NCBI GenBank assembly: GCA_046351395.1
Contig: JAXLYP010000017.1
Location: forward strand, 193,508 to 246,456
Origin: Polyangiaceae bacterium
Lineage (GTDB): Bacteria; Myxococcota_A; Polyangia; Polyangiales; Polyangiaceae
DNA: 52,949 bases
Direction: 5' to 3'
Part shown: piece by piece, positions 5,648 to 32,622 of the stretch
Position numbering within the stretch: position 1 is the stretch's first letter
Layout: each line of letters begins with the position of its first letter
Translations under genes and position numbers: made by a program
Notes under the pieces: generated by a model
Told to the model about the DNA's origin: nothing
Databases searched by the model: none
What the model saw: the letters and a program-made list of their open reading frames with translations, nothing else

Positions 5648-6859
5648 ATGCGACTCCGAAGCGCGCTCCTCCCCGCCTTGGGTGTATTGTCTGTCGCGTG
5701 TGGGGGCGGCGCCTCACCTCGTGTGCAGGAGCCGAAGCCGACTGGGCAGTGGCGGGGATCATCGACTGGGCAGTGGACGGGATCCCCGACCGGTGTGCCG
5801 TGGGGTGGCTCCATCGTCGCGGGCGGCCTTGCGATCCTGCGGAGCGGCGCGTGTCCGCTCACGGAGATCGCGCCGGGGCAGTGGGCCCAAGCGGCGTGCG
5901 CGCCCATCGTCCAGTTCAAGAACGCGCTGCCCTATCGGGCGCCACCTTTCGTGGCGAGCGCGCTCCCCGCCTATGTAGACCACCGCGCCTCGGGGCTCGA
6001 GGGCCCCGTGAAGAACCAACAGAACGTGGGCGCGTGCGGCGCCTTCTCCGTCACGACCGCGATGGAGAACGCGCTCCGCAAGCAAGGCCGGCAGGACGTC
6101 CTCTCGGCGCTCCATTACTACGTGAAGTACGGCACGGTCGCCGGCACCGGCGAGAACGGCGACGCGATCACCACGGACGCCGTCTGGCCGTACGACCCCG
6201 TGAAGGCATGCCTCTTGTCGCCCGACGAGGGCGGGGACACGTGCGATCAGGACTTCGGCGTCGTGCGGGGCGGCGGTCGCGGCGATCCGCGGTTGCGCGC
6301 CGAGCAGGCGAACGCAGACAGTCGCGGGCTCGTGCGGCTCGACCGCGCGTGGAGCATCGATCCCCGGGACGTAGACGCCATCGCGGCGATCCTCGCCGCC
6401 GGCGACGACGTCGACGCGACCTTCGCGTTCGATCGGGATGCGTGGAGCTACCGGGGGATCCAGAGCGGCGTCTTCAGCCACTACCAGGGCCCCAAGGACT
6501 ATGGTCATGGCGTCGTCCTCGCGGGGTATCGCTGGGTGAACGGAGAGCGCCAGTTCCTCATCCACAACAGCTGGGGCGCCGACTGGGCGGAGAGCGGCTA
6601 TGCGTGGATGGCGGAGAGCGACGTCCGCGCGAACCTTTGCTCGGCCTACAAGATCGATCTCGCCGAAGCGGGGACGCCGCGCCGGCCCGAGGAGACGGCG
6701 CACTATTGTCCGGGCGGGCTCCCTCCCATCGGCAACCAATGTATCCCCCTCCCGCAAGCCTCGACCGCGTGTCCGCCGGGCACGATCGGCCTTCCGGGTC
6801 TTTGTCTGCCCACCGGGGGCATCAATCCCCTCGGAGACCTCGCGCCAGGTGCGCCGTGA
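5648..6859 (+). CDS. Papain-like (C1 family) cysteine peptidase lipoprotein
   Basis: Lipobox LSVAC-GG. Catalytic residues are present in papain-like context: Gln/Cys in QQNVGACGAFSV, His in HGVVLAGY, Asn in NSWGADWAESGYAWM. Confidence 0.85.
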   Translation: MRLRSALLPALGVLSVACGGGASPRVQEPKPTGQWRGSSTGQWTGSPTGVPWGGSIVAGGLAILRSGACPLTEIAPGQWAQAACAPIVQFKNALPYRAPPFVASALPAYVDHRASGLEGPVKNQQNVGACGAFSVTTAMENALRKQGRQDVLSALHYYVKYGTVAGTGENGDAITTDAVWPYDPVKACLLSPDEGGDTCDQDFGVVRGGGRGDPRLRAEQANADSRGLVRLDRAWSIDPRDVDAIAAILAAGDDVDATFAFDRDAWSYRGIQSGVFSHYQGPKDYGHGVVLAGYRWVNGERQFLIHNSWGADWAESGYAWMAESDVRANLCSAYKIDLAEAGTPRRPEETAHYCPGGLPPIGNQCIPLPQASTACPPGTIGLPGLCLPTGGINPLGDLAPGAP

Positions 6860-7703
6860 GCTCGGTCGCGACGCGCGTGTGGAGCTCGAGCACGGTGAAC
6901 CAATCGATGAGCTCGATGCGGAGCGCGCTCACGGCCGACGCGGCCCGCGCCGTGTGCGCGCGGGGGACCTCCGCGAGCGCATCGAGGAACCCCATGTCCG
7001 TCCCCGCTCCGACGGTCGCGCGCTCGCCGCGCGCGGTCTCGCACTCGACGAGCCCCGCGGTGACGCGGATCCAGTGGTTCGCGACATCTCCCGCGCTCCA
7101 GAGGACGTCGCCTCGCTGAAACCGCACGTCCGTGGACGCGCTCGCGATCTCCGCGAGGCCCTCCACGTTCGCGCGCGCGATGGGCGATCTCCGGAGCTGG
7201 ATGACCCGCTCCACGACCGTCAGCTCCTCGTCCCGAAACGTGCCGTGCTCCGGCGGATCGGAGCGATTGGGCAATGGCCCGCGCTCCGCGAGGAGGTCCC
7301 GCGCGAGGCCCCGCAGCACGAAGCGCTGGAGCGCGAAATCCCGTTGGAGCGCGATCCGGACCGCGTCTCCGGGGATCTCGAGCGCGAGCGTCCGTGCCTC
7401 CGTCGTCGCGCTCAGGTGATCGCGCTCCGTGAGGAGCGCGGTGAACCCGAGCGCGCGCTGGCTCTCCACGCGGCCGACCAGGGTGCCTTCGTGCTCCACG
7501 CGCACGCTCCCCTCGAGCACGTAGAGCACGGACGTGATCGGATCGGTCGCGCGCCAGATCACCGCGCGCGGCCGAAACCGCCGGTAGCGGGAGCGCTCCG
7601 CCATGAGCAGGAGAGTGTCCACGCTGACCGATCGAAGATCGGGCATCGAGCCGAGGAGGCGGGCGCGCGCCTCGACGCTCGCGAGCTCGGGCTCAGCTTG
7701 CAT
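6822..7703 (-). CDS. Tandem cyclic-nucleotide-binding (CAP/Crp-effector-like) domain protein
   Basis: Two cNMP-binding-like units (LLGSMPDLRSVSVDTLLLMAE...AVIWRATDPITSVLYVLEGSVRVEH and ...FQRGDVLWSAGDVANHWIRVTAGLVECE) with no DNA-binding HTH. The start overlaps the stop of the upstream transporter gene by 11 nt; the 3' end overlaps the peptidase 3' end by ~38 nt (convergent). Confidence 0.8.
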   Translation of the reverse strand: MQAEPELASVEARARLLGSMPDLRSVSVDTLLLMAERSRYRRFRPRAVIWRATDPITSVLYVLEGSVRVEHEGTLVGRVESQRALGFTALLTERDHLSATTEARTLALEIPGDAVRIALQRDFALQRFVLRGLARDLLAERGPLPNRSDPPEHGTFRDEELTVVERVIQLRRSPIARANVEGLAEIASASTDVRFQRGDVLWSAGDVANHWIRVTAGLVECETARGERATVGAGTDMGFLDALAEVPRAHTARAASAVSALRIELIDWFTVLELHTRVATELTAHLARGLRGD

Positions 7704-10515: not shown

Positions 10516-10516
10516 G

Positions 10517-11965
10517 TCAGAACCCCGTCGTCCCGCCGACGAGGAACCGGACGCTCTCGGGCTCGCCGCCCTCCGCGAACGGCTTCGTCCCGAAGCCCAA
10601 GAGGAGGTTCAACGCGTGGTCACGGTGATTCGGCGATTGGAACCCCCCGACGAACGAGAACCGGAGTCGCTCGAGTTCGAAGTCCTCGAAGTCGCGCCCG
10701 AACACGTTCCCCACCTGCGCGCGGAGCGTGGCGTCGACGAACGACCAGATGGGCCAGGTGTACGTGACGCTCGCCGCGGCGGACGTCTCGCCGAGGAGGC
10801 GCCCGGGGGTGAAGCCGAGGAGGGGCTCGTCGTCGGGCACGCGATCGGTCCGACCGCTCCCGATGAGCTCCGTGAACGGCACGCGCGCCGTGCTCGAGAA
10901 GGGCTCGATCGCGCGGACGTCCACGAGGAGCCCGAGCACGCGCCGCGTCCCCGTGACGTCGATGAACCCGCCCACGGACCCGCCCACCTGCGCCCACTCG
11001 ACGTGCGACCCGACGTCGCTCCCGAGCTCGGCGTGCGCGTCGAGCCCGACCCCGGAGCCCGGCCCTGGGCGCGGCTGTCGCGAGTCGAGCACGACGCGCC
11101 CACCGACCTTCACCGCGGTGTATCCGGCGAACCCGTCGGGGAGGGGATAGAGCCCTCGAGCGACCGCGCGGGAGATGGGCAGCGTAGGACACTCGTGTGG
11201 CCATACCGGGCAGCTCTCGTCGGAGAACGAGTGGTGCCGGACGACGGCCCAAGCCTCCACGAAATTGGCCTTTCGCGGCTCCACGTGGGTCCGAATGCCG
11301 CCTCCGACCGAGCGCTGCTCGAACCTCGACTCGTCCGCGTAGCGAGACCGGTACCCCACACCGTAGAACAGGTAGTCGGCGCGGACGACCCCGTCCGCCT
11401 CGAGCTGCAGGTTGGAGCGCACGCGGTGAGAGCCGTCGGGTTCGACCTCGACGTCGAGCGGGACGCGGTCGACCACGCGAGCTGCGAAGTACCTCTCGCC
11501 CCCCGTCGCGACCGACGCGCGGAGTTGATTGTCTGTCACGAGGAAGTCGTCGTAGAAGTGGTAGAGGCCGACGCTCGGACGAAAACCGAACTCGTAGAAC
11601 GCCGTCGGGATGAGGCCCACGTTGTGGTGAGGGCCGAACGTGAAGAAGTCGGTCACCTTCGCCACGATGCCCTCGCGGTCGATCACCGTGGTGATCGCGC
11701 CGAGGGGGCGCCGGATGACGTAGTCCGAGACCACGTAGAGCGGCGCGAAGAGGACGCGGGGGATCCAGAGCGCGCCCTCCGCCGCGGTCGTCTCGCGCGG
11801 TCTGCCCTCGTAGTCCTGCGGTGGGCGCTTCTCTCCGGGCGGCCGGGATGGATCCTCGGGGAGCACGGCGGGGTGCTCGGGGACGTCCCCCCGCGCCGGG
11901 GGCGCCGCCGCGAGGGCAGCGCCGAACGCGAAGACCATGGCACCGAGCGCCTTGGGCGAGTTCAT
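10517..11965 (-). CDS. Secreted beta-barrel-like outer-membrane protein, paralogue of 23156..24616
   Basis: Signal peptide MNSPKALGAMVFAFGAALAAAPPARG. Alternating hydrophobic pattern; C-terminus ...SVRFLVGGTTGF* ends in Phe. Clear paralogy with the 23156..24616 product (PGEKRP.QDYEGRPRETT.AE.ALW.PRVL ... RFSFVGGF.SPNHRDHALN.LLGFGT.PFA.GG.PES.RFL.GGTTGF*). The ATG overlaps the stop of the upstream lipoprotein (ATGA). Confidence 0.75.
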   Translation of the reverse strand: MNSPKALGAMVFAFGAALAAAPPARGDVPEHPAVLPEDPSRPPGEKRPPQDYEGRPRETTAAEGALWIPRVLFAPLYVVSDYVIRRPLGAITTVIDREGIVAKVTDFFTFGPHHNVGLIPTAFYEFGFRPSVGLYHFYDDFLVTDNQLRASVATGGERYFAARVVDRVPLDVEVEPDGSHRVRSNLQLEADGVVRADYLFYGVGYRSRYADESRFEQRSVGGGIRTHVEPRKANFVEAWAVVRHHSFSDESCPVWPHECPTLPISRAVARGLYPLPDGFAGYTAVKVGGRVVLDSRQPRPGPGSGVGLDAHAELGSDVGSHVEWAQVGGSVGGFIDVTGTRRVLGLLVDVRAIEPFSSTARVPFTELIGSGRTDRVPDDEPLLGFTPGRLLGETSAAASVTYTWPIWSFVDATLRAQVGNVFGRDFEDFELERLRFSFVGGFQSPNHRDHALNLLLGFGTKPFAEGGEPESVRFLVGGTTGF

Positions 11966-13779
11966 TGGAGGGCCGCGCCCGGCTCGTCGGGCCTCTGGAT
12001 GGCGACCATCTTGAAGTGGGAGGACGCCCCGAGATCGTACAAATGAACGCGCAGCGGACCCCGCGCCGCGCCGTTCGAGACGTCGAGCACCGCGTATCGA
12101 AGGGGGTGATCGTCGGGCAGCGAGCGGTCGTCCACGACGCGCGGTAGATCCACGCAGACCGTCGCATCGTCGCCGAGGCTGACGGGGAGGGCCTTTCGCT
12201 GGTCGAGGTCGAGCCCCGTCCGGAGCTCGGCGGCGTACGTGAACCGCGTCCTCGGCCAGGTGGTCGTCTTGTGCGCGAGATCGGTCGCGCAGACGCGGTC
12301 GCCCTCGACGGTCACGTCCGCCAGCGGGGATACGACGCTGAAATACCGCGTGAGGATCTCGTCCCTTCGTTGGATGAGTGTCCGCGTGAGGAACTCCGTC
12401 GCGCGAGGGTCCGTGTAGTCGCCGACCCGCACCGCGGCCGCGATGTTCGCGTCGGTGAAGCGCGACAGGATGCGCGCCGCCCACGCGCCGTCCTCCTCCG
12501 TCATGCGAGCGAACGCGGGGTTCGGGTAGCCGCCCTTCCAGTCCTCGGGCACGAAGTCCGGCCTGAAATAGTCGAACATCGGGAGCTCGGTGTTCGCGAC
12601 GGGCCGGTCCCATGGGCGCTCGAACGAGCCGAGCGTCAGGAGGTCGATCGCCACGTCCTCCGGATCGAAGTAGTAGCTGTGGTTGATCCTCCGGTTCCAG
12701 CTCTCCCATTGCCAATGGCTGCCAAAGCAGTCCCCGAGGTCGATGTACCAATGTGTCGTCCGCCCCGGAGAGGAGTCCTTCGACTCGGGGTCCACGGCGT
12801 CCCAGGTGGTCATCGTGTTTTGCTCGCGCGAATCGAAGTGCCCGAGCCACGCGGCCATGAGCCGCGCTCCGCGGAGATCCCTTCGGTCCTCGTGAGGGAT
12901 GATGTCGTTGGGATCGTCTTCTCGCGTCTCCTCGTACCGGAAGGGGCCGATCGCGCGTCCTGGGAGCCACCGCGACGCCACCATTCGTACGAGCCCACCT
13001 CGCTTCTGTGCGCTGTCGAGGATCGCCTGGAGCTTCCCGTCGTCGAACGGCATTTTGGTGCCCGTATTGTCTGCGTAATCGAGCCCGGGCTCGAGCCTGA
13101 GCCAGGACTTGTCGACGTAGACAATCGTGTCGCACGCGGTCCACCAGCCCGCGGCGTGGTAGAGCCTGGACGCGATGGATGTCGCCCCGGTCGCCTTCTC
13201 GCCTTCGCCCTCGGCGTCTGCCTTCAGCATGAACTTGCCGACGCCCTCGATCTCGACCCGAAAGCCCGGGTTCGCGCCGTTCGCCTTGCCCATGTCGACG
13301 CGCCAGGCGCCCGGTTCGTGCGGGGCCGTGGCGATCGTCTTGTGGCCGCAGCTCCCGCGCGTGATCTCCTCGTCGGTCATCGGCCTCACGCCGATGCGGT
13401 TCGTGAACCAGCTCGAGTCGGGCACCTCGTCGACCGCGTTCACGTTCCGCGCAGCGAAGCCGACGTCCGCGGCGAAGAACTTCACGATGGGCCGGAAGAT
13501 GGTCTTGTCGGCGACGTCCCATAGGAACGGGGACTCGTACTCTTCGGGCCGACAGAGTTGCTTCTTCGCGTCCTTCGGATCGGGGCGACACGGCACTCGG
13601 ACCGCCCGCAGATCCTCGTCGATCCAGACCGGGTCGCGGAGCGGGAACCGCCGGATGCCACCGCACCCCGCGACCGAGGTCGCCGCGCCGCTCGCCAGCG
13701 CCGCGCCGATCACGACTCGGCATGCGGCTCGCAGAATCTTTACGGCCCCCGCCTCGCGATGAGCCCACCGAATCGCCAT
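11962..13779 (-). CDS. Periplasmic lipoprotein with protein-kinase-like (APH/ChoK-type) motifs
   Basis: Lipobox VKILRAACRVVIGAALASGAATSVAGC. Motifs in kinase-like order: FRVEIEGVGKFMLKAD (beta3-Lys-like), EKATGATSIASRLYHAAGW (alphaC-like), WLGHFDSREQNTM (HxDxxxxN catalytic-loop-like), HWYIDLGDCFG (metal-binding Asp-like). ATG assigned at 13779, which overlaps the divergent PAP2 start (see findings). Confidence 0.65.
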   Translation of the reverse strand: MAIRWAHREAGAVKILRAACRVVIGAALASGAATSVAGCGGIRRFPLRDPVWIDEDLRAVRVPCRPDPKDAKKQLCRPEEYESPFLWDVADKTIFRPIVKFFAADVGFAARNVNAVDEVPDSSWFTNRIGVRPMTDEEITRGSCGHKTIATAPHEPGAWRVDMGKANGANPGFRVEIEGVGKFMLKADAEGEGEKATGATSIASRLYHAAGWWTACDTIVYVDKSWLRLEPGLDYADNTGTKMPFDDGKLQAILDSAQKRGGLVRMVASRWLPGRAIGPFRYEETREDDPNDIIPHEDRRDLRGARLMAAWLGHFDSREQNTMTTWDAVDPESKDSSPGRTTHWYIDLGDCFGSHWQWESWNRRINHSYYFDPEDVAIDLLTLGSFERPWDRPVANTELPMFDYFRPDFVPEDWKGGYPNPAFARMTEEDGAWAARILSRFTDANIAAAVRVGDYTDPRATEFLTRTLIQRRDEILTRYFSVVSPLADVTVEGDRVCATDLAHKTTTWPRTRFTYAAELRTGLDLDQRKALPVSLGDDATVCVDLPRVVDDRSLPDDHPLRYAVLDVSNGAARGPLRVHLYDLGASSHFKMVAIQRPDEPGAALQ

Positions 13780-14649
13780 CCGATCGCCGTGCGCGCGGCC
13801 GAGCTCCTCGGCTCGAGTCCGCTGCTCGTGCTCGCGGGCGTGGGCGTGTTCTCGATCGGGCTCGTCCTCGTTCTCGTCGTCCTCGCGAGGTGGATGAGCG
13901 CGCGGGGCCTCGGCTGGCGGAAGGCCCTCTTTCGACGCGCCGCGCGCGCTGTCGGCGCCGCCCCGAGCGCGCGCGCGAGGCTCTCGCGGCTCGTCCGGCT
14001 CGAGTACGAGCTCGTCCACCTGGGACTTGGGCTCGCGCTCCTCGCCGGGCTGGTCGTGTTCGTGGCGCTCGCGGTCTCCGTCGTCGACGACGGCGCAGTC
14101 GCGGCGTTCGACGAGTCGCTCGCGCGTGCGGTCCACCGATCGACGCCGCCCGAGCTCGTGCGCGTCATGCTCGTCGCGACCTCGCTCGGCGGCGGTGAGG
14201 CCGTCCTCGTCGTCGCGGTGGTCGTCGCGGTGGGGCTCCTGGTGCGGCGGCGATGGCACCTCGCCATCGGCTGGATCACGGCGGAGGCGGGCGCGGGCCT
14301 CTTCAACGCGCTCCTCAAGTCGCTCTATCGGCGCGCGCGTCCCACGCTCGACGATCCGTTCACGAGCGCATCCGGGTGGAGCTTCCCGAGCGGACACTCC
14401 ATGGGGACGATCGTCACCGCTGGGATGCTCGCTTATGTGTTCTCCCGGTTCTACCCGCCGGGGTGGCCGCGCTTCGTGGCCGTCTTCCTCGCGACGCTGT
14501 GGACGCTCGTCATTGGGTTCAGCCGCGTGTGCCTCGGCGTCCACTACGCGAGCGACGTGCTCGGAGGGTTCGCCGCGGGCGCGGTGTGGCTCGTCGTTTG
14601 CGTTTCGGGCCTCGAGGTGGCGTTGCGCCCCAATCGCTCGGCCGTTTAG
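13759..14649 (+). CDS. PAP2-family integral-membrane phosphatase
   Basis: All three PAP2 motifs are present: KSLYRRARP, SFPSGHS, SRVCLGVHYASDVLGG, across six hydrophobic segments. Alternative GTG start at 13789. Confidence 0.8.
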   Translation: MSPPNRHPIAVRAAELLGSSPLLVLAGVGVFSIGLVLVLVVLARWMSARGLGWRKALFRRAARAVGAAPSARARLSRLVRLEYELVHLGLGLALLAGLVVFVALAVSVVDDGAVAAFDESLARAVHRSTPPELVRVMLVATSLGGGEAVLVVAVVVAVGLLVRRRWHLAIGWITAEAGAGLFNALLKSLYRRARPTLDDPFTSASGWSFPSGHSMGTIVTAGMLAYVFSRFYPPGWPRFVAVFLATLWTLVIGFSRVCLGVHYASDVLGGFAAGAVWLVVCVSGLEVALRPNRSAV

Positions 14650-14773
14650 TCCGTCCCAGTCGTGACGTTTTGCCCCGATTCGTGGCGTTGGTGCGCGCCA
14701 GTCTGCCCTCGAGACGGGTGCCGCGCAGTCGCCAAGTCCGTCGTCCCCCATCGAAGAGAACCGAGGCCACGAC

Positions 14774-15790
14774 ATGCCAACCGTCCTGTCGCAACCGCGT
14801 CGTACCGCGCCCGCATTCGCAGCACGTTCGATGTTCTTCGGTGTCTTGATCAATGGGATCGTCCCTTCGTCCGCGCTCGCAGATCCGCAAGTGGACACAG
14901 CGCCGAGCGCTCCGACGGAGAAGGCAACCGCCGCGCCCACGCCGCTCGCCACGAAGAGCGCCGCGGAGAAGAAGCCGGACTCGCTGGATTGGGATCCGCG
15001 TTGGCCGGAGGTGAAACCCTACGAGTACATCCTCACCGGTGTGTTCGCGCTCGCAGCGATCGGTGGACAGGCGATCCCCGGCGGCCCGAGGTGGACGGGG
15101 CACAACGCGTTCGACGACGCGGGCCGCGAGGCGTTGCTCTTGCCGGACTTCGAGGATCAGGAGCGCGCGAAGGACTTCAGCGACGTGGGCCTCGTGATCC
15201 TCGTGAACCAAGCGCTGATCGACAATCTCTTCGTCACGTGGTGGGCGCGTGATCACCCGAAGACCGCATGGCAGCTGTCCGTGATCGACACCGAGACGCT
15301 GGCGTTCAGTATCGGCGTGGACGCGCTCGTCGCCGGCGCGACGGGCCGCGAGCGCCCGTACGTCGAAGCGCTGTGCGATCAGGAGGACCACAAGAATCGC
15401 GGCTACTGCGACGGGAGCAACCGCTACCGAAGCTTCTTCAGCGGACACTCCACGGCCGCGTTCACCCTGGCGGGGCTCACGTGCATCCATCACGCGGAGC
15501 TCGGTATTTACGGCCACCCCGTCGCTGACGCGTTCGCGTGCGGCGGCGCGATGGCGACGGCGACGGGCGTCGCGCTCCTCCGTGTCGCCTCTGATCAGCA
15601 CGATCTCTCGGACGTGCTCGTCGGGGCAGTGTGGGGCACCGCGACCGGGGTCACGCTGCCGTGGCTCCTCCACTACCGGGGCGGGGCGAAGGTCGAAGAG
15701 AAGAAGCCGGACCCGCATGCCGCCGTCGAGGCCCCGCCGCCGGGCGTGGTCGTCACGCCGAGCGGCGCGTACGTCATGGGAGCGTTCTGA
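14774..15790 (+). CDS. Secreted PAP2-superfamily phosphatase
   Basis: Motifs GATGRERPY, SFFSGHS, RVASDQHDLSDVLVG. N-terminal hydrophobic signal; alternative start at the Met at 14831. Paralogue of 16722..17639. Confidence 0.8.
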   Translation: MPTVLSQPRRTAPAFAARSMFFGVLINGIVPSSALADPQVDTAPSAPTEKATAAPTPLATKSAAEKKPDSLDWDPRWPEVKPYEYILTGVFALAAIGGQAIPGGPRWTGHNAFDDAGREALLLPDFEDQERAKDFSDVGLVILVNQALIDNLFVTWWARDHPKTAWQLSVIDTETLAFSIGVDALVAGATGRERPYVEALCDQEDHKNRGYCDGSNRYRSFFSGHSTAAFTLAGLTCIHHAELGIYGHPVADAFACGGAMATATGVALLRVASDQHDLSDVLVGAVWGTATGVTLPWLLHYRGGAKVEEKKPDPHAAVEAPPPGVVVTPSGAYVMGAF

Positions 15791-15793
15791 GCG

Positions 15794-16690
15794 ATGGGGT
15801 CCTCGAGAGAACGCCGATGGAGCGTCGCCGCGCGATCGATCTTCGTGGTCGTGATCGCCGTTCTCACCCGAGAGGCGCGCGGTCAAGTGCTCGACCTCCC
15901 GGACGCGACGACGAACCCGACCGCGCCACCGCGGGACGTGGATCAGAAGCTCCCCTATTGGGAGAGAGGAGAGATCCGGCCATTCACGTCGGCGGTGTTC
16001 GACGTCGGCGGGTTCTTCGTGCGCCCCGAGTTGAACGTCGGCTACGGGCAGCCGCACTTCAACTGGATCGGCGCGGAGATCTTCAGCAAGCTCACGCTCG
16101 GCGGCGTGACGCTCGGAGCGGGCGTCCACGGTCAGATCCCGAACGTCGACGCGCGCCTCGGCGTGCGGTCGTTCCGGTCGGCGGATCAACGCCTGCTCCA
16201 GCGCAAGAACGTGTATCGGGAGTCGGACCCGACGATCCTCGATCAGCCCGCCTCGGCCTACGACAGCGTCGACGCGGATCTCGCGGTGAACGTCCGCGCG
16301 CTCGGAGGATCCGTCAGCTTGGAGACGCGCGCGCTCGCGCTCTTCCAGGTCCCCGACGGATATGACGTCTTCGAGGACGTGTTCCGCGTCGTGGTCCGAC
16401 CGCCGCTCGTCTGGCAGGCGAAATTGACGTATGTCGTCTTCGCGGGCTGGGACGATCGCCTCGCGCTCGGGTTCACGACGGAGCTCCTCGGCGCTCCAGC
16501 GAGAGACAACCTCGTCTTCCGCGTCGGCCCGGTGCTCACCGTCGCGTTGACGGAGCACCTCCAGGCGATCGGCGGCGGCGCCTTCGCGATCCTGTACCAC
16601 GACGATCTCGGCCTCAGCGGGTCGGATCTCGGGCAGATCGGTCTGCGCTACCGTTGGGCGTCGGGAGAGCCTTACCCCGACTTCCCGTGA
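15794..16690 (+). CDS. Secreted (possibly outer-membrane beta-rich) hypothetical protein
   Basis: ATG lies 3 nt after the PAP2 stop. Signal peptide MGSSRERRWSVAARSIFVVVIAVLTREARG. Amphipathic beta-strand-like C-terminal half. Confidence 0.6.
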   Translation: MGSSRERRWSVAARSIFVVVIAVLTREARGQVLDLPDATTNPTAPPRDVDQKLPYWERGEIRPFTSAVFDVGGFFVRPELNVGYGQPHFNWIGAEIFSKLTLGGVTLGAGVHGQIPNVDARLGVRSFRSADQRLLQRKNVYRESDPTILDQPASAYDSVDADLAVNVRALGGSVSLETRALALFQVPDGYDVFEDVFRVVVRPPLVWQAKLTYVVFAGWDDRLALGFTTELLGAPARDNLVFRVGPVLTVALTEHLQAIGGGAFAILYHDDLGLSGSDLGQIGLRYRWASGEPYPDFP

Positions 16691-16721
16691 CGGGCGGCCC
16701 TCGCCGAGGGCCGCCCGTGCT

Positions 16722-17639
16722 TCAGAACTGCCCGCCCCAGGAGAGCTGCACGGGCGGCCGCGCGGTGACGAGCGGCGCGGACGCCGCCGCGCTCGTGTTC
16801 GGGCCGTCGACGGTCTGCGTGTAGTGCAGGGCGAGGGGGACCGCGAGGCCTACCCCGTACCCGAAGAGGAAGCCGCTGATCGCGTCGCTCATCCAGTGCC
16901 GATCGGAGATGACGCGCATCCCGGCGATGGTGACGGCGAGGGCCGTCGAGCCGACGCACGCGACGACGTCGGGCGCGCCGCCCCCGTAGAGCGGGACATA
17001 GGCGTGGTGGGCGCACGTCAGCCCCGCGCCGACCGCGCTCATCGTCGCGTGACCGCTGAACCAGCTCGCGTTGACGCCGAAGGAGCCACAGTCGTACGCC
17101 CAGCCTTTGTCTGTTTGGCATCCGATCCCGGCTGGGCGCTCCCGCGCGGCGAGCCGGTGGTTCACGCGCATGACGAGATACGCGATCCCGTAGGCCTCGA
17201 GGTTCATCGCCGTCAGCTGCTGGAGCATATCGAGGTTCTCGTCGATCGCCGGGACGAGGACTCCATCGATGAGGACGGGGTAGGCGGCGCTCACGGCGAG
17301 CAAGACGTCGCTCGCGATCTGAATGCCGCGTCGATCCTTAAGCCGCGGCATCGCGACGGCGTCGCGGGCGATCTCGTCGAACAGGATGGGCCCGATCCAC
17401 CGGGGCTCGATGGGCTGTTCGGTCCCGAACTCGATGATGCCCGCGCCGGTGATCGACAGGGCGGTGAGCGTGTACTCGCCCCACACGACGCGCGGGTGGG
17501 ACTCGTCCCAGTGCAGGCGGTGCTCGTCCTTGGCCTGCGCCGCTGCGCGCTCGCATGGCGCGAAAGCTGCGAGCGCCGCGCCCAGAAGGATCGCGTGTTG
17601 GTGTCTGTGCAGCGAGGAGTTCACCAGGGGATCCGTCAC
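16722..17639 (-). CDS. Secreted PAP2-superfamily phosphatase, paralogue of 14774..15790
   Basis: Motifs AARERPAG, WFSGHAT, RVISDRHWMSDAISG. Signal peptide; ends ...SWGGQF*. The ATG overlaps the stop of the upstream small lipoprotein (ATGA). Confidence 0.8.
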   Translation of the reverse strand: MTDPLVNSSLHRHQHAILLGAALAAFAPCERAAAQAKDEHRLHWDESHPRVVWGEYTLTALSITGAGIIEFGTEQPIEPRWIGPILFDEIARDAVAMPRLKDRRGIQIASDVLLAVSAAYPVLIDGVLVPAIDENLDMLQQLTAMNLEAYGIAYLVMRVNHRLAARERPAGIGCQTDKGWAYDCGSFGVNASWFSGHATMSAVGAGLTCAHHAYVPLYGGGAPDVVACVGSTALAVTIAGMRVISDRHWMSDAISGFLFGYGVGLAVPLALHYTQTVDGPNTSAAASAPLVTARPPVQLSWGGQF

Positions 17640-18190
17640 TCGGGTGAGGGGGTCGACGTCGAGGGCTTGGGCGGTTCGGGCGGGGGCGGCGGTGTGGGCT
17701 CTCGCAGCGAGGGCACCGCGGACGCGCTCGATCCTGGCGTGGGCTGCTCCTTCGTCCCCCCCTTGTCGATCGGCGGGCCCTTCTCCGTCCCGTTCGGATC
17801 CTGTTCGGAGGGCTCGAGGTGCTCCTTCGCGTCACGGACAAAGCCGCTCGTGGGGACGTATTTGTAGGTCGCCTTTTGTCCACAGCCGCTGACGCCGAAC
17901 GTCGTCGCGTCGAGCTCGGTGACGTCGAGCGCCGTGTTGCCGCAGGTGAGGTCGAACGCCGCGCGCTCGCGCAGCGAGACCCAGTCGTCCTTCACGGGGT
18001 CGTGGATGATGACGTCCTTCTTCCCGCAGCCCGTGACGATCCGGATCGGGCCGGCGTGGTTCGTCTCGATGTCGTCCTCCTCGCACTCGAGCGTGTGCCG
18101 AGCCTTCGGCATGATCGATGGCCAGAAGCACGCCCCGATCAGCGTCCCCGAGACCACGGAGAGTGTGACGGCAAGCCTCGATGCGCTCAT
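17636..18190 (-). CDS. Small lipoprotein with an internal Cys-containing repeat, translationally coupled to PAP2
   Basis: MSASRLAVTLSVVSGTLIGAC; repeats VTGCGKKDV and VSGCGQKATYKYV; Pro-rich tail. GGAG sits 3 nt upstream of the ATG. Confidence 0.6.
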   Translation of the reverse strand: MSASRLAVTLSVVSGTLIGACFWPSIMPKARHTLECEEDDIETNHAGPIRIVTGCGKKDVIIHDPVKDDWVSLRERAAFDLTCGNTALDVTELDATTFGVSGCGQKATYKYVPTSGFVRDAKEHLEPSEQDPNGTEKGPPIDKGGTKEQPTPGSSASAVPSLREPTPPPPPEPPKPSTSTPSPE

Positions 18191-18280
18191 GAGCTCCGGC
18201 CTCGTCCGAGGGACGTGAAGGTGCGCGGAGGGACCGCGCCGTGAACGAGCGCCCGTGGGGCGTTCATCTCGAAGAGCCAC

Positions 18281-18956
18281 TCACGAGCGCGATCCAAGGA
18301 CCGGACCATCGCCGAGGTCGTCCAAGTGGGAGGTGTCGGCGAGGCGCGTGGGGGTCCAGGCGAGCCCCGCGCTGTCGAGCCGGAATAGACTGGCCACGGG
18401 GCATGGAATGTCCTCCTCCGTGCCCGTGAGACCCTTCACGATCCCGAGGATGGCGACCGCGTGCGTCACGAGAAGGAGTGATCCGTCGTAGGTCGCGGCG
18501 AGGGCACGAGCGGTGAGGGCCGAGCGCGCGAACGCCTCCTCGATCGTCTCGAGCGATGGGGGCACCGAGCGGCGTGTGGCTCCGGTCCACCTCGACCCGC
18601 TCGAGGCGCGCTCGGAGCTCGTCCGCGGACAGCATGTCTCCTAGCCCCGGCCCCCAGTCGGGCCGCTGGAGCTCCGCGAGCCCCGGCTCGAGCGCCACGC
18701 CGCCTCCGATCACGCGCGCGACCTCGGCGGCGGTCTGGACGCAGCGGAGATAGGGGGACGACACGATCCGCGTGATGCCCGACGTCCCGAGGCGTGTCGC
18801 CACGGCTCGGGCCTCCTCGAGGCCGCGCGCGGACAATCCGGGATCGTGGGGCCGCGGGGCGGTGCGCCCCCACTCGAGGTCACTGAAATCGGCGCGGTCA
18901 CCGTGCCGAACCAGCCAAAGCGTTCGGGCGCGGACGGGCTCTGTGGCTGAGGTCAT
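18281..18956 (-). pseudogene. Histidine phosphatase (phosphoglycerate-mutase/SixA superfamily) with a frameshift in a G5/C5 homopolymer
   Basis: The N-terminal part, in the 18264..19064 frame, is MTSATEPVRARTLWLVRHGDRADF... (RHG motif) ...LSADELRARLERVEVDRSHTPLGAP. The C-terminal part, in the 18281..18565 frame, is PSLETIEEAFARSALTARALAATYDGSLLLVTHAVAILGIV. The two frames join if one base is removed from the run ggggg at ~18560-18564. Confidence 0.65.
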
Positions 18957-18996
18957 CGACGCTCCACGGGCACACAGCGTGCTTGGTTGGTATTCG

Positions 18997-19599
18997 ATGC
19001 ACGTCCTCCGCCATGCGGTGATGGGTGCGAGCATGGCGCTCGCCGGCTGCGCCTCGTCGCCCATGCCCGCGTGGCCCGTGTCGACCCCTGCGGAGCTCTG
19101 TCAGGACCCGACCCTCGGCCCCTCCGACTTCTGCATGCCCGCCGCGCGCATCGAGGTGTGGCTCCGCGAGGGCGACTTTCGGATCACGAACGTGGCGTTC
19201 TCGAGCTCGGGCGTGACGCGCCCCTACAAACTCAGGCTCGAGCTCGCGTCGGGGCTGACCATCAACGCGAAGTTCAAGCGCGCGCCGGACGATCTCGAGG
19301 CGTTCAACAACAGCCCGCGGCGCGAGCTCGCCGCCTATGAGATCCAGAAGCTGTTCTTGGACCCGGACGACTACGTCGTCCCTCCGACGGTGCTCGCCTG
19401 CATCCCGGCGCGCACCGAGCTGATGCCGGAGCTCGAGCCGCACCCGAGGGCGACGTGCGCGATCGGCGTACTCGCGTATTGGGTGGAGGGCCTCACGGAC
19501 CAGGGGGTCGTCGACCCCGCGCGGTGGGCGGCGGACGCGGGGTACCGCGACGTACCCGTTCACCCGTCGGACGGGATCAGCGTGGGGACTTCCAGTTGA
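18997..19599 (+). pseudogene. N-terminal part of a kinase-like lipoprotein gene interrupted by the IS66-family remnant
   Basis: MHVLRHAVMGASMALAGC (lipobox). ...FRITNVAFSSSGVTRPYKLRLELASGLTINAKFKRAP (beta1-3 with Lys), ELAAYEIQKLF (alphaC-like), CAIGVLAYWVEGL (hinge-like). The protein-like sequence ends in a short non-homologous tail before the stop at 19597-19599. Confidence 0.5.
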
Positions 19600-19669
19600 G
19601 CTGGGTCGCAAGCTGCAAGGAGGAAGCCGAGGATCGACCTTCGCTGGAGGCGAAGCGAATGGATCACGG

Positions 19670-21042
19670 TCATGACTCGCTGGGCGAACAGGCATCCTCG
19701 CTCGCTCTGGGAGCCGTAAGAGACCTTGCGCCAAAGCACGAACGGCGCAGCGCGCGCTCGGCATGATTATCAGGGATCCACTTCAGGCTCGAAGGCGAAC
19801 GTGAGGAGGGCGGCCTTGTGTTCGAGTATGTCGAGGCAGGAGCCGGAGACGCCGCGCAGGCGCAGCCCCGCGCCGCGTTCGAGGAGTCCCTCGAACGCCA
19901 TCTGCGCTGGTCGCCATCCTCTGGTACTTGGCGCGTGAGGGTGCCGTCCCGCACCTTGTGCCAGGCGGCAGCACAAGGTGAGAGAGCAGAGAAGGTCCTC
20001 CCCGAGTTGGCGTCCCGCGTCCTTGCGTTCGGAGAAGGCGACGAACTTCCTGATGAGGTGCGCCCAGCAGATCTGCCGCCGCCCTGATGGCCCAGAAGCC
20101 GAACTGCGAGCCTCGGTCCGTCACCAAGGATCCCGGAGAGGGCCCATGAGCGCGGCGATTGTCCGCGACAAGCATCGGCGGTGACGAAGAACACAGCGAC
20201 GGACCGCGTTGCGATCGTCCAGAGCGCGGCATACAGGCCGGCGACTCGCCAGGTGCTTCCGTCCACGTGCTTCACGGGGTGCGCGCGGACGTAGCAGGCC
20301 GCGGCATCCACCGGGGCAGCGATAGCGTCGTTGATCCGCTCCTCGGCCTCGCTGAGGGCGCCGAGCGAGACTGGGATGCCGAAGATCTCGGAGAGGTACT
20401 CCCGGCAACTGTCGCGCCACTGTCCGCGCGCCGAGGAACAGCCGATGAACGCGAGCAGCCGGGGACCGAACATGTGGCTCGGGACGCTGCCGGCAGACTC
20501 GCCCACGTCGTCTTCCCGCAGTCCTTGCAACAGGCCCCGCCCATGACGATCTCGTGAACGTCCGGCTTGATCCTTCGGGGATGTCGACGACCTGATGCAG
20601 GCGCGGGTCGATCCCCTCCGCCGCGAGATTCCGTCCGCCGCATCCTCGACATCTCTTCGGCGCCAGCTTCGTCCGACGGGTCACCTTCTCGGGCGGGAAC
20701 AGCACGCGGGTGTTCGGCTTGTGTCCGGGCTGGCCGCCGCGACTTCGACCGGTCGGCTTCTTCTCGGGTCGAGTCCCAGGTAGATCGGTCGACGGAGGCT
20801 TGCCCGACTCCTCGAGTTCTGCCCCAGCTGCTGCTCGAGGTCGGCGACTCGCACCTTGAGCTGCGCGATCTCCGCGTCCTGCCCGCGATGATCGGTGTCG
20901 CGCTCCGCGACCATGGCAAGCAGCGCCGCGACCTGGGCTTCCAACTTCGCCAGACGCTTGCCGACCGAGGTCACCGACCCACTCGATCATGCGGCGATCC
21001 TCGTGTCGATCCCCGATCGCGTATGATCACATATGATCATGT
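19670..21042 (-). mobile_element. IS66-family transposase (TnpC) remnant with multiple frameshifts; possible imperfect terminal repeats at both ends
   Basis: Fragments in three minus-strand frames, in TnpC order: leucine zipper (LAKLEAQVAALLAMVAERD...LEQQLGQNSRSR, 20974..20681); zinc-finger region (RGGQPGHKPNTRVLFPPEKVTRRTKLAPKRCRGCGG...HQVVDIPE); DDE-core pieces (HVDGSTWRVAGLYAALW..., then LVTDRGSQFGF). AT-rich near-palindromic ends: catgattatcag (~19762) and tgatcacatatgatcatg (~21024-21042). Confidence 0.7.
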
Positions 21043-21549
21043 ATGGCTGCTCGACCCGGTGAACGGGTACACCGCGACAACCTCGGGAACTTGAACGTGC
21101 TGACGGCGCTCATCGGTCACCAAGACGACATTGGAGTGAACTTCTACCGGTCGAAGGACGCGGCGCGCCCGCGGCTATTGTCTGTCGACAATGGGCTCGC
21201 GTTCGGCGCGATGGGAGACAATCCCATTCGGTTCTTCAGCAGCGCATGGAGCGACGTGCGAGTCCCGCTCCTGCCTTCGAAGACGGTGGACAGGCTCGGC
21301 TCGGTCGACCGGGCGCGCCTCGAGCCCCTCGGCGTGGTCGCGCAGATGCGCCTCGAGGGCGGCGCGTTCCATCCCATCCCACGGACGCCGACGCTCGATC
21401 CGAACCAGGCCGTGCGCTGGAACGGGGACGACGTCCAGCTCGGGCTCACCGCCGAGGAGATCACGGACGTCGATGTCCGGCTGGCACGGCTCCTCGGCGC
21501 GATCGACTCCGAGGAGGTCCAGCGCGGTCGTCCCCGCGAATCGAAGTGA
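21043..21549 (+). pseudogene. C-terminal part of the interrupted kinase-like lipoprotein gene
   Basis: ...VHRDNLGNLNVLTALIGHQDDIGVNFYRSKDAARPRLLSVDNGLAFGA... has an HxDxxxxN catalytic-loop-like motif and a DNG (DFG-position) motif. There is an in-frame stop just upstream (21034), consistent with truncation. Confidence 0.5.
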
Positions 21550-21719
21550 TCGCTCGCTTCGAGGGGAGATCGCTGCCGACGATCGACGTCGCCGAGGAGG
21601 GCGGTGCGCTCGCCACCTCGGCGTGGGTCGAAAGTGCCTCGACTTGGCACCCAAATGCCACATCGAGCCGCCCTGCGAGCCCTCCTCGGGCTGGTGCGCG
21701 AATCGCATGAGCACCAAGG

Positions 21720-23159: not shown

Positions 23160-24616
23160 GGACACCGGGGGCGAGCCTCACCCTCGTCCTCGTGTGCGCG
23201 CTCGCGGGCAGGTCCGCGACGGCGCGCGCGGACGGCGCGAGCCCCCCCGCGCCGCCGCCGCACCCGTCGACGCTCCCAGAGGACGCGCGCCGCGCCCCGG
23301 GGGAGAAGCGCCCGCTGCAAGAGTACGAGGGGCGCCCGCGCGAGACCACGACCGCGGAGGACGCCCTCTGGGTCCCACGCGTCCTCCTGTTCCCCGCGTA
23401 CCTCGTCTCGGAGTTCGTGGTTCGGAGGCCGCTCGGCGCGATCGACACCGCGCTCGAGACGGGCTCGACGGGCGGCCGGCTCATCGACGTGTTCACGTTC
23501 GGACCGCGCCACAACGCCGGTTTGGTCCCGACCGCGTTCTACGACTTCGGGTTCCGTCCGAGCGCGGGGCTCTACCTCTTCTACGACGACTTCCTCGCGA
23601 CAGACAATCAGCTCCGCGCGGCGTTCGCGACCGGCGGAGAGCGGTATTTCAGGGCGCGGGTGGTGGACCGAATCCCCCTTCACGTCGTCCGGGGCGAGGA
23701 CGGCGAGCACGAGGTCAGGGCGAACCTCCAGCTCGAGCTCGCTGGGCTCGCGCGGCCCGACCATCGGTTCTACGGCCTCGGCTTCGGATCGAAGAGCGCG
23801 CACGGATCGGAGTTCGAACAGAGATCGGTCGGGGGAGGAGTCCGCTTCCGCGCGGAGCCCTGGAGGTGGTCCTTCCTCGAGTCTTGGGTGCTCTATCGGC
23901 ACCACGACTTCTCGGATGGGGGGTGCGACGCACGCCCGTCGGACTGTGATCACCCGCCGATCTCATGGGCCATCGAGAGGGGCTGGTACGCGGCGCCAGT
24001 GGGCTTCGACGGATACCAGACAATCAAAGTCGGCGCGCGAGCGGTGGTGGACACGCGCCCGGATCGACCCGCGCCGGGATCGGGCGCGGGCTCGGAGATC
24101 CGCTTGGAGCTGACGAACGACACGCGCGGCGGGGAGTGGGCGGAGGGGGGCGCCACCGTGGGCGGCTTCCTCGATCTCACCGGGACGCGGAGGGTCCTCG
24201 AGCTGACGCTCGACGTGCGCGCCCTCGAGCCGCTCTCGTCGGGAACGGCGATCCCGTTCACCGAGCTCGTCGGCGCGGCCCGCATGGATGGAATCCTCGA
24301 GGACGGCGTGCTGCGCGGGTTCATCGCGGGTCGCCTGCTCGGAGAGAGCTCCGTGGTGGCCTCGCTCGGGTATTCGTGGCCCATCTGGGCCTGGGTCGAC
24401 GCCACTCTGCAAGCCCAAGTCGGCAACGTGTTCGCGCACCGGCTCGCCGATTTCGCGCCGGAGCGGCTGCGGTTCTCGTTCGTCGGCGGCTTTCGATCAC
24501 CGAATCACCGGGACCACGCGCTCAACGTGCTGCTGGGGTTCGGGACCGAGCCGTTCGCCGACGGCGGCTCGCCGGAGAGCCTGCGGTTCCTCATCGGGGG
24601 CACGACCGGGTTCTAA
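23156..24616 (+). CDS. Secreted beta-barrel-like outer-membrane protein, paralogue of 10517..11965
   Basis: GTG start. Signal peptide MRTPGASLTLVLVCALAGRSATARA. C-terminus ...ESLRFLIGGTTGF*. Confidence 0.8.
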   Translation: MRTPGASLTLVLVCALAGRSATARADGASPPAPPPHPSTLPEDARRAPGEKRPLQEYEGRPRETTTAEDALWVPRVLLFPAYLVSEFVVRRPLGAIDTALETGSTGGRLIDVFTFGPRHNAGLVPTAFYDFGFRPSAGLYLFYDDFLATDNQLRAAFATGGERYFRARVVDRIPLHVVRGEDGEHEVRANLQLELAGLARPDHRFYGLGFGSKSAHGSEFEQRSVGGGVRFRAEPWRWSFLESWVLYRHHDFSDGGCDARPSDCDHPPISWAIERGWYAAPVGFDGYQTIKVGARAVVDTRPDRPAPGSGAGSEIRLELTNDTRGGEWAEGGATVGGFLDLTGTRRVLELTLDVRALEPLSSGTAIPFTELVGAARMDGILEDGVLRGFIAGRLLGESSVVASLGYSWPIWAWVDATLQAQVGNVFAHRLADFAPERLRFSFVGGFRSPNHRDHALNVLLGFGTEPFADGGSPESLRFLIGGTTGF

Positions 24617-26060: not shown

Positions 26061-26075
26061 GCGCGGAGGGAACGG

Positions 26076-29636: not shown

Positions 29637-30266
29637 TCAAGGGCAGCCCCCATCGATCACGAGTCCAGTCCGGCCGAGCGGCTCGGCGTCGGGCGTCCAG
29701 TCGAGCCCGTCCGCGAACGACATCACGCCCTCCACGTCCACCGCGCAGGGGGGAGCTGAAATCGCGAGCTTCCCACCGAGCGAGGTCGCGTTCGCGATCT
29801 CGCCGATGGGTGTAGGCGGACCGATCCCGGTCCACGGCGCGCAGTCGTCCGCGTCGTGGGTGACGCGCGCGAACTTGATGAGATCGAGCGGGTATTGCCC
29901 GAGATCGACGACCTCCATCGAGAGCGCGTCGAGCCCGAGCTGGAAGCAGAGATCCCGCGCGTCGTCGCGCTTGAGGATCGCGACGGCCCCGGCGTTCGTG
30001 AAGAGGTTGATGGCGCTGTAGGCGTCGCAGGGACCCGCGCACGATCCACTCCCCGTGCTGCTCGACGCGCTCGCGCTCCCGGCTCCACTTCCGGTCGCGC
30101 TCGAGCCGACGGTCGTTCCGCCCCCATCATCCTCGAGCGTGGCGACGTCGCGACACGCGCCGAGGAGCACAATCGCGATCACGAGGGTCGCCCGCGGCGC
30201 CGTGCGCTCGCGAAGGAGTGCTCCGAGGGAGGTCCCTTGGGGTGCGGTTTCGCCGCGCGCCCTCAT
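29637..30266 (-). CDS. Lipoprotein (Gly/Ser-rich linker plus Cys-containing domain), translationally coupled to the TssC-like gene
   Basis: ATG 30266..30264 overlaps the TssC stop (ATGA). ...TLVIAIVLLGAC (lipobox), GSSATGSGAGSASASSSTGSGSCAGPCDAYSAINLF... Confidence 0.6.
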   Translation of the reverse strand: MRARGETAPQGTSLGALLRERTAPRATLVIAIVLLGACRDVATLEDDGGGTTVGSSATGSGAGSASASSSTGSGSCAGPCDAYSAINLFTNAGAVAILKRDDARDLCFQLGLDALSMEVVDLGQYPLDLIKFARVTHDADDCAPWTGIGPPTPIGEIANATSLGGKLAISAPPCAVDVEGVMSFADGLDWTPDAEPLGRTGLVIDGGCP

Positions 30267-31607: not shown

Positions 31608-31675
31608 CGTACCATCCTGGCATTCGGACCTGCGCGACCTCGCTTGTCAAGGCACGGTGCGCCGATGAAGGCGCC

Positions 31676-32371: not shown

Positions 32372-32622
32372 CTGGACGACCCGGCGTCTGCCCGTGGATA
32401 CGTGCGACGACCACCGAGCGCACGCAATTCCGCGGAGGACCGCGGCTGAATGGCTCCGTTCTGCGGCGGGTCCTCCACCGCATTCCACGACCGCCCTCCT
32501 GGGCGAAGTGGACAAAAGGCTCCGAATGTCCTCCTCGCGTTGGCGCGCGACGAGGAACTCCGCACGTCGCGGGTGCTCCGCGCGCCGCTCCCCGGGCCAA
32601 CGCGCTGATAGCGTCTCCATCG

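Follow-up and report, generated by a model that had tools for sequence, protein, structure and literature searches.

What would a kinase-fold lipoprotein do in a periplasm that textbooks hold to be free of ATP, and in which ATP-dependent chemistry is thought to need trans-envelope machines? The question is raised by a locus in a 52,949-nucleotide stretch of the metagenome-assembled genome of a soil myxobacterium of the Polyangiaceae (assembly GCA_046351395.1, contig JAXLYP010000017.1, positions 193,508 to 246,456; hereafter the window), where two gene sets on opposite strands each contain genes for a kinase-fold lipoprotein (kin1 or kin2), a carrier of the TLC/NTT nucleotide transporter type (NTT-HEAT or NTT2) and an outer-membrane barrel (barrel1 or barrel2). 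The original prediction, made from the sequence alone, took the two sets for copies of one module in which the carrier exports ATP to the kinase and the barrel serves as an outer gate. We found instead that the locus is a composite of two sub-modules with different kinase families and carrier subtypes, and that the association of kinase, carrier, and barrel genes is far above chance. Our preferred reading, to which we give a probability of roughly 45%, is that the locus encodes a cell-envelope phosphorylation system in which NTT-like carriers would export ATP for a periplasmic kinase.

Genes were called from third-codon-position GC and open reading frame analysis of the window, which has a GC content of about 70%, and both sets, including the insertion sequence (IS) that disrupts kin2, were located where they had been predicted. 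The minus-strand set runs kin1, barrel1, NTT-HEAT, and a gene for a tandem cNMP-binding protein; the plus-strand set runs kin2 (split by the IS), NTT2, and barrel2. Read from the DNA, kin1 and barrel1 share an ATGA overlap and the stop of NTT-HEAT overlaps the start of the cNMP-binding gene by 11 nt, while barrel1 and NTT-HEAT, thought to overlap by 1 nt, are separated by a 1-nt spacer. NTT2 and barrel2 are joined by a GTGA overlap. Three PAP2 genes, two genes for exported proteins of no known family (unk298 and unk214), and one His_Phos_1 gene lie between the sets.

Structure models of the two lipoproteins were confident (pLDDT 81 for kin1 and 89 for kin2). In kin1, an atypical protein-kinase-like fold at approximately residues 150-480 is followed by a C-terminal Ig/FN3-like beta-sandwich at approximately residues 486-595. 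Over the whole catalytic domain, both families resembled the Fam20/PI4KII/CotH/HipA/CtkA group of kinases. Type II phosphatidylinositol 4-kinase (PI4KII) was among the top structural matches for kin1 as well as kin2, Fam20 protein and sugar kinases scored equal to or above it, and the secreted kinase CtkA and the spore-coat kinase CotH were among the best matches. The beta3 Lys, alphaC Glu, HxDxxxxN, and DxG motifs occur in order in both families and are invariant or nearly so. Residues K186, E194, H314, D316, N321, D347, and G349 of kin1 were invariant in 32 diverse sequences, and in the model they occupy the strand and helix where such residues are expected. Among 30 kin2 sequences, numbered after the intact 345-aa homologue P0121, K95 was nearly invariant and E113, D206, N211, D227, and N228 were invariant. 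With the IS removed, the halves of kin2 in the window aligned to P0121 in one frame (67% identity, 99% coverage), the C-terminal part over residues 185-342 in the same frame as the N-terminal part, and this copy retains all conserved catalytic positions. Structure models and family alignments therefore bear out the kinase fold and the ordered, intact catalytic motifs that had been proposed for both lipoproteins.

By sequence, neither protein could be assigned to a named family. kin1 had no match in Pfam, NCBIfam, or PDB profile searches, and kin2 had no significant match in any of the three (PDB profile for PI3K/PI4K, E 0.18 or worse); ten of the 30 kin2 members matched Pfam PI3_PI4_kinase, with a best E of 6e-4 that lies below the gathering score. 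Profile membership in Fam20C, CotH, PI3_PI4_kinase, or HipA_C was found for neither. Of the families named for profile searches at the outset, TLC was matched by both carriers and HEAT by NTT-HEAT; kin1 matched no kinase-clan profile, and kin2 matched PI3_PI4_kinase below the gathering score. BLASTP detected no significant similarity between kin1 and kin2, and hhalign aligned the catalytic loop alone (E 0.011, probability 3.8%). We therefore dropped the idea that they are paralogues; they are two sequence-unrelated families with a common fold. The kin1 family comprises at least 1971 clusters at 90% identity, all annotated as 'hypothetical', and the kin2 family 720 representative clusters at 50% identity, so that the locus defines two sizeable kinase-fold families without a Pfam model.

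Sequence features place both families outside the cytoplasm, since the lipobox Cys is conserved (32/32 in kin1 and 24/30 in kin2), the kin2 members without it carry ordinary signal peptides, and conserved Cys pairs are present (three in kin1, two in kin2). The kin1 start codon is ambiguous (13779, 13743, or 13713). The protein is identical to NCBI U0414_27330, and the NCBI call is 22 codons shorter; a GTG start at 13743 would give a better signal peptide. With the 13779 start, kin1 and the divergent PAP2a gene (start 13759) overlap at their annotated 5' ends.

The linkage of these kinase genes to carriers was assessed in other genomes. kin1 neighborhoods were compared at 80 loci, all from Myxococcota/Polyangia, plus one further Sorangium locus (81 in all), covering 17 complete Sorangium genomes, Labilithrix, Haliangiales, and Polyangiaceae metagenome-assembled genomes (MAGs), with the window proteins used as tblastn queries to identify neighbors up to 10 kb from kin1. 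Across all 81 loci, a barrel gene was present at 56, an NTT2-type gene at 51, NTT-HEAT at about 20, PAP2b at 24, and unk298 at 15. At the 56 loci with flanks of at least 5 kb, a barrel gene was found at 43, an NTT-like gene at 42, both at 35, and neither at 6. Given the handful of such genes in genomes of 10-16 Mb, we estimate that proximity of kin1 to a partner would arise by chance less than 1% of the time. Approximately ten gene orders and orientations were seen across Sorangium, Labilithrix, Haliangiales, and Polyangiaceae MAGs. The Sorangium order is kin1> <barrel NTT2>, many MAGs have NTT2> barrel> kin1> PAP2>, and loci L004-L011 have NTT-HEAT> cNMP> NTT2> PAP2b> unk298> kin1>. At L046, all seven genes (NTT-HEAT, cNMP, barrel, kin1, NTT2, PAP2, and unk298) lie on one strand.

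kin2 neighborhoods came from 80 metagenome loci with a contig GC of 0.43-0.76, mostly on short contigs, so that counts depend on flank length. An NTT-like gene was found at 24/80 loci overall, at 13/27 with at least 1.5 kb on both flanks, and at 8/16 with at least 2.5 kb on both flanks, and was often directly adjacent to kin2 on the same strand (L109, L119, L126, L143, L158, and L163). No barrel gene was found at any of the 80 kin2 loci. The predicted co-conservation of carrier, lipoprotein, and barrel consequently holds for kin1, whereas the association of kin2 with NTT-like genes is partial and lacks the barrel. The most regular neighbors of kin2 were phosphatases, with a Metallophos gene beside it at L165, L166, L121, and L114 and a divergent PAP2 gene at L167 and L169. 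One operon (L083) reads Metallophos lipoprotein > NTT-HEAT > cNMP > kin2 > NTT2-type > 246-aa exported protein. The conserved core combines an extracytoplasmic kinase fold with a phosphatase, frequently joined by an NTT-like carrier, and the barrel is a partner specific to kin1. An exported protein of approximately 240 aa and no known family recurs beside kin2 in several metagenome contigs (L083 10336-11076, L166 2230-2952, L088, L091, L114, L123, L142, and L147). Neither the window nor the kin1 loci contained a homologue of the 246-aa protein or the Metallophos enzyme of the kin2 operon.

Fused gene calls were also observed in the kin2 family. kin2 and Metallophos were fused in the gene calls of two representative clusters (P0371 and P0385), and Beta-lactamase2 and kin2 in one (P0446). 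In P0440, one reading frame runs from a TLC carrier through a hydrophobic segment resembling a signal peptide into kin2, which would place the kinase outside the membrane; its neighborhood (L168) contained no further genes of the system. We take P0440 as suggestive only, because a comparable call fusing TLC and barrel (P0339) was judged a probable artefact: the product is physically implausible, and the barrel keeps its own signal peptide.

Shared ancestry and synteny within Polyangia, with kinase-like proteins that are non-catalytic binding proteins and no functional system, would also place these genes together. The many kin1 loci from closely related Sorangium genomes, the incomplete linkage, and the IS that destroyed one kinase copy in the window without obvious loss of the neighboring genes are all compatible with such an account. 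We nevertheless consider it very improbable, as gene order and orientation were reshuffled in about ten ways with proximity kept, fused genes exist, and invariant catalytic residues are unexpected for pseudokinases. Two unrelated kinase families also show the same association across contigs of widely differing GC, and their independent linkage to NTT-like carriers strengthens the argument for a link between kinase and carrier.

We compared both carriers with Pfam TLC (PF03219, gathering threshold 21 bits) and the NCBIfam model for NTP/NDP exchange transporters, TIGR00769 (cut-off 387 bits). NTT2 matched TLC with 60 bits over profile positions 148-487, equal to its score against MFS_1 (61 bits). 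NTT-HEAT reached 32.3 bits, also above threshold, although this match is partial and spans 53 residues (aa 106-158); its HEAT region matched HEAT_2 at aa 563-636 (E 5.9e-12). In the PDB, the top sequence matches of NTT2 were the NTT structures 9j3n (E 4.5e-10) and 9j3j (E 5.6e-5), with the next chains of the major facilitator superfamily (MFS) at E of about 0.1 or worse, and the alignment covers the FWxFA...KRxFxLxGxGA and KxxAKxAID stretches. The transporter domain of NTT-HEAT had AtNTT1 (9j3j) as its best match (E 9e-4); artificial HEAT-repeat proteins that outrank 9j3j match the C-terminal half of the protein. The TLC/NTT assignment therefore stands. The helix-1 motif on which it was first based lies outside these Pfam and PDB alignments, which start after residue 100-140 and so lend it no statistical support. 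The carriers are approximately 20% identical to characterized NTTs and are distant relatives, rather than orthologues, of the characterized exchangers, and at this identity the substrate cannot be inferred from sequence. In AtNTT1, the charged residues K155, E245, E385, and K527 are needed for counter-exchange.

NTT2 and NTT-HEAT are 23% identical to each other, and the two subtypes share single operons at L004-L011, L046, and L083. As the kinases are unrelated as well, the barrels (62% identity) are the only clear paralogues among the two sets, and we rejected the idea of a duplicated module. The cNMP-binding protein is translationally coupled to NTT-HEAT, judging from the overlap of their genes, and the same pair occurs at L004-L011, L014, L046, and L083. 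NTT-HEAT paired with a cNBD (a domain that binds cyclic nucleotides) was described as a widespread conserved unit whose function is not established (Major et al. 2017; PMC5381601).

The barrels probably belong to the Omp85 superfamily. Many barrel homologues carry a precomputed PF01103 annotation and are named as BamA/TamA family, and 13 of 31 aligned family members matched Pfam Omp85 (best E 4.3e-8), while barrel1 and barrel2 themselves had no match in Pfam (Omp85 included, at E <= 0.01) or NCBIfam. Two motifs that define Omp85 proteins (PMC11358297) were recognized. The L6 motif, (V/L/M)RG(F/Y), reads LRGF in barrel2, MRGF or LRGF in most members, and LLGF in barrel1, and the FxDxG-type barrel-wall motif appears as W/F-(L/I/V)-D-(G/A) and is conserved throughout the family. 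A length of 482-486 aa and the lack of a POTRA match in the Pfam scan fit the noNterm Omp85 proteins, a recognized class whose function is not established and whose genes adjoin lipoprotein genes in Leptospira too (PMC11358297; PMC4104836). PDB profile matches of the barrel to nanobodies were discarded as spurious. An N-terminal segment before the first predicted strand, KRPxPDY(E/D)GR...TT..E..LW(V/I)PR, is strongly conserved (11780-11870 and 23250-23340), with R47, D51, Y52, G54, and R55 nearly invariant; purely as speculation, the neighboring kinase-like lipoprotein might dock at this segment or modify it.

Characterized Omp85 proteins insert or translocate proteins, which makes a nucleotide gate unlikely, and we rejected that role. 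A protein-handling barrel this tightly coupled to kin1, through the ATGA overlap and the barrel>kin1 order at many loci, could instead export the lipoprotein, in the manner of two-partner-secretion or Slam-type systems. The kinase would then act, in the manner of CotH and CtkA (both among the best structural matches), on proteins of prey, matrix, or spore coat, with extracellular ATP from lysed prey; the carriers would import nucleotides, the phosphatases would harvest phosphate, and clustering would reflect one predation or scavenging regulon in which the carrier does not feed the kinase. In favor of this account, all characterized NTTs import nucleotides (PMC5381601), and genes for Metallophos, PAP2, and His_Phos enzymes and for a lipoprotein of the Peptidase_C1 family lie nearby; the Leptospira gene pairs fit it as well. 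We consider this explanation unlikely. kin2 associates with NTT-like genes without any barrel, the His_Phos and cNMP/HEAT parts are cytoplasmic, and a shared regulon does not explain the frequent same-strand adjacency of kinase and carrier. The study of noNterm Omp85 proteins itself points to an extracellular dome as speaking against transport through these barrels (PMC11358297).

Phosphatases are part of the conserved neighborhood, and Pfam matches established the three PAP2 genes and one histidine phosphatase gene expected between the sets. PAP2b and PAP2c are paralogues (32% identity). Both end in an aromatic tail (...GAF and ...GGQF) more typical of outer-membrane proteins. PAP2b and unk298 form a two-gene unit directly upstream of kin1 at L002, L004-L014, and L046. 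Neither unk298 nor unk214 had a Pfam or NCBIfam match, and whether unk214 is part of the system is uncertain. The His_Phos_1 match covers profile positions 1-86 of 194; the frame shifts near 18640, and the rest, with LLVTHA, continues in another frame (18640..18281), indicating either a pseudogene or an assembly error. The histidine phosphatase gene is divergent from kin2 in the window, and the same pair occurs at L086 and L088.

The regularity of PAP2, with three genes in the window, the PAP2b-unk298 unit by kin1, and divergent copies by kin2, could also point to remodeling of lipid head groups. PI4KII-like lipoproteins would phosphorylate a lipid of the outer membrane and PAP2 enzymes would dephosphorylate it, with sphingolipids and other unusual lipids of Polyangia that lack lipopolysaccharide (LPS) as candidates. 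The MFS carriers would move something other than ATP, be it a lipid, a precursor of a head group, or some other phosphorylated metabolite. Phosphate would come from a donor other than free periplasmic ATP, in the way that the PAP2 enzyme LpxT uses undecaprenyl-PP. The PI4KII matches of both families, the weak PI3_PI4_kinase matches of kin2, and the equal MFS_1 and TLC scores of NTT2 are consistent with this alternative, and Sorangium reportedly lacks LPS and has an unusual outer-membrane lipid composition (Keck et al. 2011, as cited in PMC11324152). However, a kinase fold whose Lys/Glu/Asp/Asn/Asp set is intact uses a nucleotide triphosphate, so a nucleotide source would still be required, and the closest characterized relatives of the carriers are nucleotide exchangers. 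Fam20 kinases score as high as PI4KII or higher, and the fusion partners and neighbors of kin2 also include Metallophos enzymes, which are soluble and are no lipid phosphatases. We therefore regard lipid remodeling with a non-ATP carrier as doubtful.

Features of the locus are listed in Table 1. At its ends, the IS within kin2 has inverted repeats of 13 bp (GTACCCGTTCACC and GGTGAACGGGTAC), and it is flanked by an 8-bp direct repeat, ACCGCGAC, at 19544-19551 and 21071-21078; this perfect target duplication makes the insertion look recent. The transposase frame is broken and split over several frames, and its matches were below threshold (DDE_Tnp_IS66 E 0.01; DUF6444 E 0.0099-0.058).

Table 1. 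Features of the kinase-carrier-barrel locus (positions within the window).
Feature	Position	Strand	Characteristics
kin1, lipoprotein, 605 aa	13779..11962	-	Lipobox VAGC; kinase-like fold
barrel1, probable noNterm Omp85, 482 aa	11965..10517	-	Signal peptide; C-terminal ...GGTTGF
NTT-HEAT, 940 aa	10515..7693	-	TLC/NTT-like MFS domain (about aa 1-410) and cytoplasmic HEAT repeats
Tandem cNMP-binding protein, 293 aa, cytoplasmic	7703..6822	-	Pfam cNMP_binding E 1e-19, two stretches
PAP2a, integral-membrane PAP2 phosphatase	13759..14649	+	Pfam PAP2 E 4.3e-21; several hydrophobic segments
PAP2b, PAP2 phosphatase with signal peptide	14774..15790	+	Pfam PAP2 E 8.9e-13
unk298, secreted, 298 aa, no family	15794..16690	+	Operon with PAP2b; putative outer-membrane beta-barrel
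PAP2c, PAP2 phosphatase with signal peptide	16722..17639	-	Pfam PAP2 E 3.2e-9
unk214, small probable lipoprotein, Pro-rich tail	17636..18280	-	Lipobox-like LIGAC in translation
Histidine phosphatase (branch 1), no signal peptide	18264..18956	-	Pfam His_Phos_1 E 7.6e-16
kin2 N-terminal part, lipoprotein	18997..19551	+	Lipobox LAGC
Insertion sequence, 1519 bp, IS66-like look	19552..21070	-	Inverted repeats and target duplication
kin2 C-terminal part	21071..21549	+	Catalytic loop GHQDDIGVN; metal-binding SVDNGLAFG
NTT2, single-domain TLC/NTT-like MFS carrier, 479 aa	21720..23159	+	Pfam TLC 60 bits
barrel2, probable POTRA-less Omp85, 486 aa	23156..24616	+	Paralogue of barrel1; LRGF

Three further genes were noted around the locus. 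A papain-family (Peptidase_C1) protein whose N-terminus resembles that of a lipoprotein (VACGG) is encoded at 5648-6859 (+), and the 3' end of its gene overlaps the convergent cNMP gene by 38 nt. A Ser/Thr kinase (Pkinase E 3e-48) with an N-terminal zinc ribbon and a C-terminal FGE-sulfatase domain (E 1.4e-54) is encoded at 26061-27797 (+). At 30263-32911 (-), an 882-aa frame has type VI sheath domains (VipB/VipB_2) only at residues 450-879, so that it either has a long N-terminal extension or its true start lies further downstream.

In the phosphorylation system that we favor, kin1 and kin2 would act outside the cytoplasm as kinases on an envelope lipid head group or protein, and the PAP2, histidine, and metallo-phosphatases would either undo this modification or process the nucleotide that results. 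NTT-like carriers of the inner membrane would exchange cytoplasmic ATP for periplasmic ADP (and Pi), and ATP/ADP exchangers feed lumenal kinases of the eukaryotic secretory pathway in a comparable way. The cytoplasmic HEAT domain and the cNMP-binding protein might gate NTT-HEAT in response to a cyclic nucleotide. The barrel would handle the lipoprotein rather than a nucleotide, by inserting, anchoring, or surface-exposing kin1-type proteins, or it may be their outer-membrane partner or substrate. Gene content, folds, conserved motifs, export signals, and linkage are what the analysis shows; kinase activity and its substrate, the direction and cargo of transport, regulation, and the part played by the barrel are inferred. 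The three points on which the original prediction depended, namely a TLC match of the carriers, a kinase fold of the lipoproteins, and co-conservation of the genes, all held.

Several observations weigh against this reading. Both carriers fall far below the TIGR00769 cut-off (55.3 bits for NTT2 and 21.8 bits for NTT-HEAT), and with this shortfall, the low identity to characterized NTTs, and the equal MFS_1 and TLC scores of NTT2, their substrate could be something other than ATP. ATP in the periplasm should leak through outer-membrane porins. Linkage of kin1 is not obligatory, as shown by the six of 56 loci without a barrel or NTT-like gene within 10 kb, and many kin1 loci from closely related Sorangium genomes are not independent. 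The contigs with the closest kin2 orthologues (L088, L169, and L170), as well as L165-L167, had no NTT-like gene nearby, and linkage was counted starting from the kinase genes. The P0440 fusion comes from one contig of one sample, and the P0339 call, which would have joined carrier and barrel, is probably not real. Foldseek of kin1 against the PDB, a check proposed with the kinase assignment, returned Fam20 at the top again, with weak scores (best E 1.3e-3, TM below 0.3).

Each component is a distant member of a known superfamily, and earlier descriptions exist of both the NTT-HEAT/cNBD pair and the noNterm Omp85 proteins. What is new are the two unannotated families of kinase-fold lipoproteins and the conserved linkage of their genes with those for NTT-like carriers, for phosphatases, and for an Omp85 barrel. 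Compared with Fam20 kinases (Fam20C, Fam20B, and the Caenorhabditis elegans Golgi casein kinase), kin1 lacks a Pfam match and kin2 has only the sub-threshold PI3_PI4_kinase match; the proteins are bacterial lipoproteins, and kin1 has an extra N-terminal region in addition to its beta-sandwich. PI4KIIalpha, which kin2 members match only below the Pfam gathering score, is a palmitoylated eukaryotic enzyme of the cytosolic face. kin1 and kin2 also lack sequence-family membership with CotH of the spore coat and CtkA secreted by Helicobacter pylori, neither of which is known to share a locus with a nucleotide carrier or with an Omp85 barrel.

The carriers resemble the NTT/TLC antiporters (Rickettsia Tlc1, Chlamydia Npt1, and plastid NTT1) in scoring above the Pfam TLC cut-off. 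They differ in that the host here is free-living with a large genome and that the proposed outward direction of ATP would be opposite to energy parasitism. NTT-HEAT, with 940 aa, a C-terminal HEAT region, and a cNBD gene directly downstream, matches exactly the architecture of the NTT-HEAT(+cNBD) clade (Major et al. 2017), although the published analysis reported no linkage to kinase-fold lipoproteins, Omp85, or phosphatases (PMC5381601). As in noNterm Omp85 proteins, members of the barrel family match PF01103, show L6 motifs of the RGF type and barrel-wall motifs of the FxDxG type, and adjoin a lipoprotein gene, and the window barrels had no POTRA match; unlike them, the window barrels fall below Pfam significance and carry the extra KRPxPDYEGR...TT..E segment. 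Searches of a literature library on periplasmic ATP and kinases, NTT-HEAT function, NTT structures, and bacterial Fam20-like lipoproteins returned no description of such a system. It is possible, though we lean slightly against it, that the locus represents a truly new kind of system, that is, nucleotide supply to the bacterial periplasm.

Exported enzymes that depend on nucleotides are a recognized puzzle, such as how the NADH-dependent CerR works in an NADH-free periplasm (PMC11324152), and Lig E, an ATP-dependent ligase targeted to the periplasm, has been described in the literature. We tentatively propose that free-living diderms energize the periplasm through cyclic-nucleotide-gated NTT export of ATP (or another nucleotide cofactor) against ADP, which would feed lipoprotein kinases for reversible phosphorylation of outer-membrane lipids or proteins, together with phosphatases and Omp85 partners. 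If true, bacteria would have their own counterpart of the lumenal phosphorylation seen in the eukaryotic secretory pathway, and NTT homologues would gain a first function outside parasites and organelles. What such homologues do in free-living bacteria, the widespread NTT-HEAT/cNBD unit among them, has been an open question since that unit was described (PMC5381601). The locus provides linked candidates, comprising a carrier, a kinase fold, a phosphatase, and an Omp85 protein, for the questions of periplasmic ATP and NTT function, and as some of them occur in cultivable Sorangium strains, both questions become experimentally approachable.

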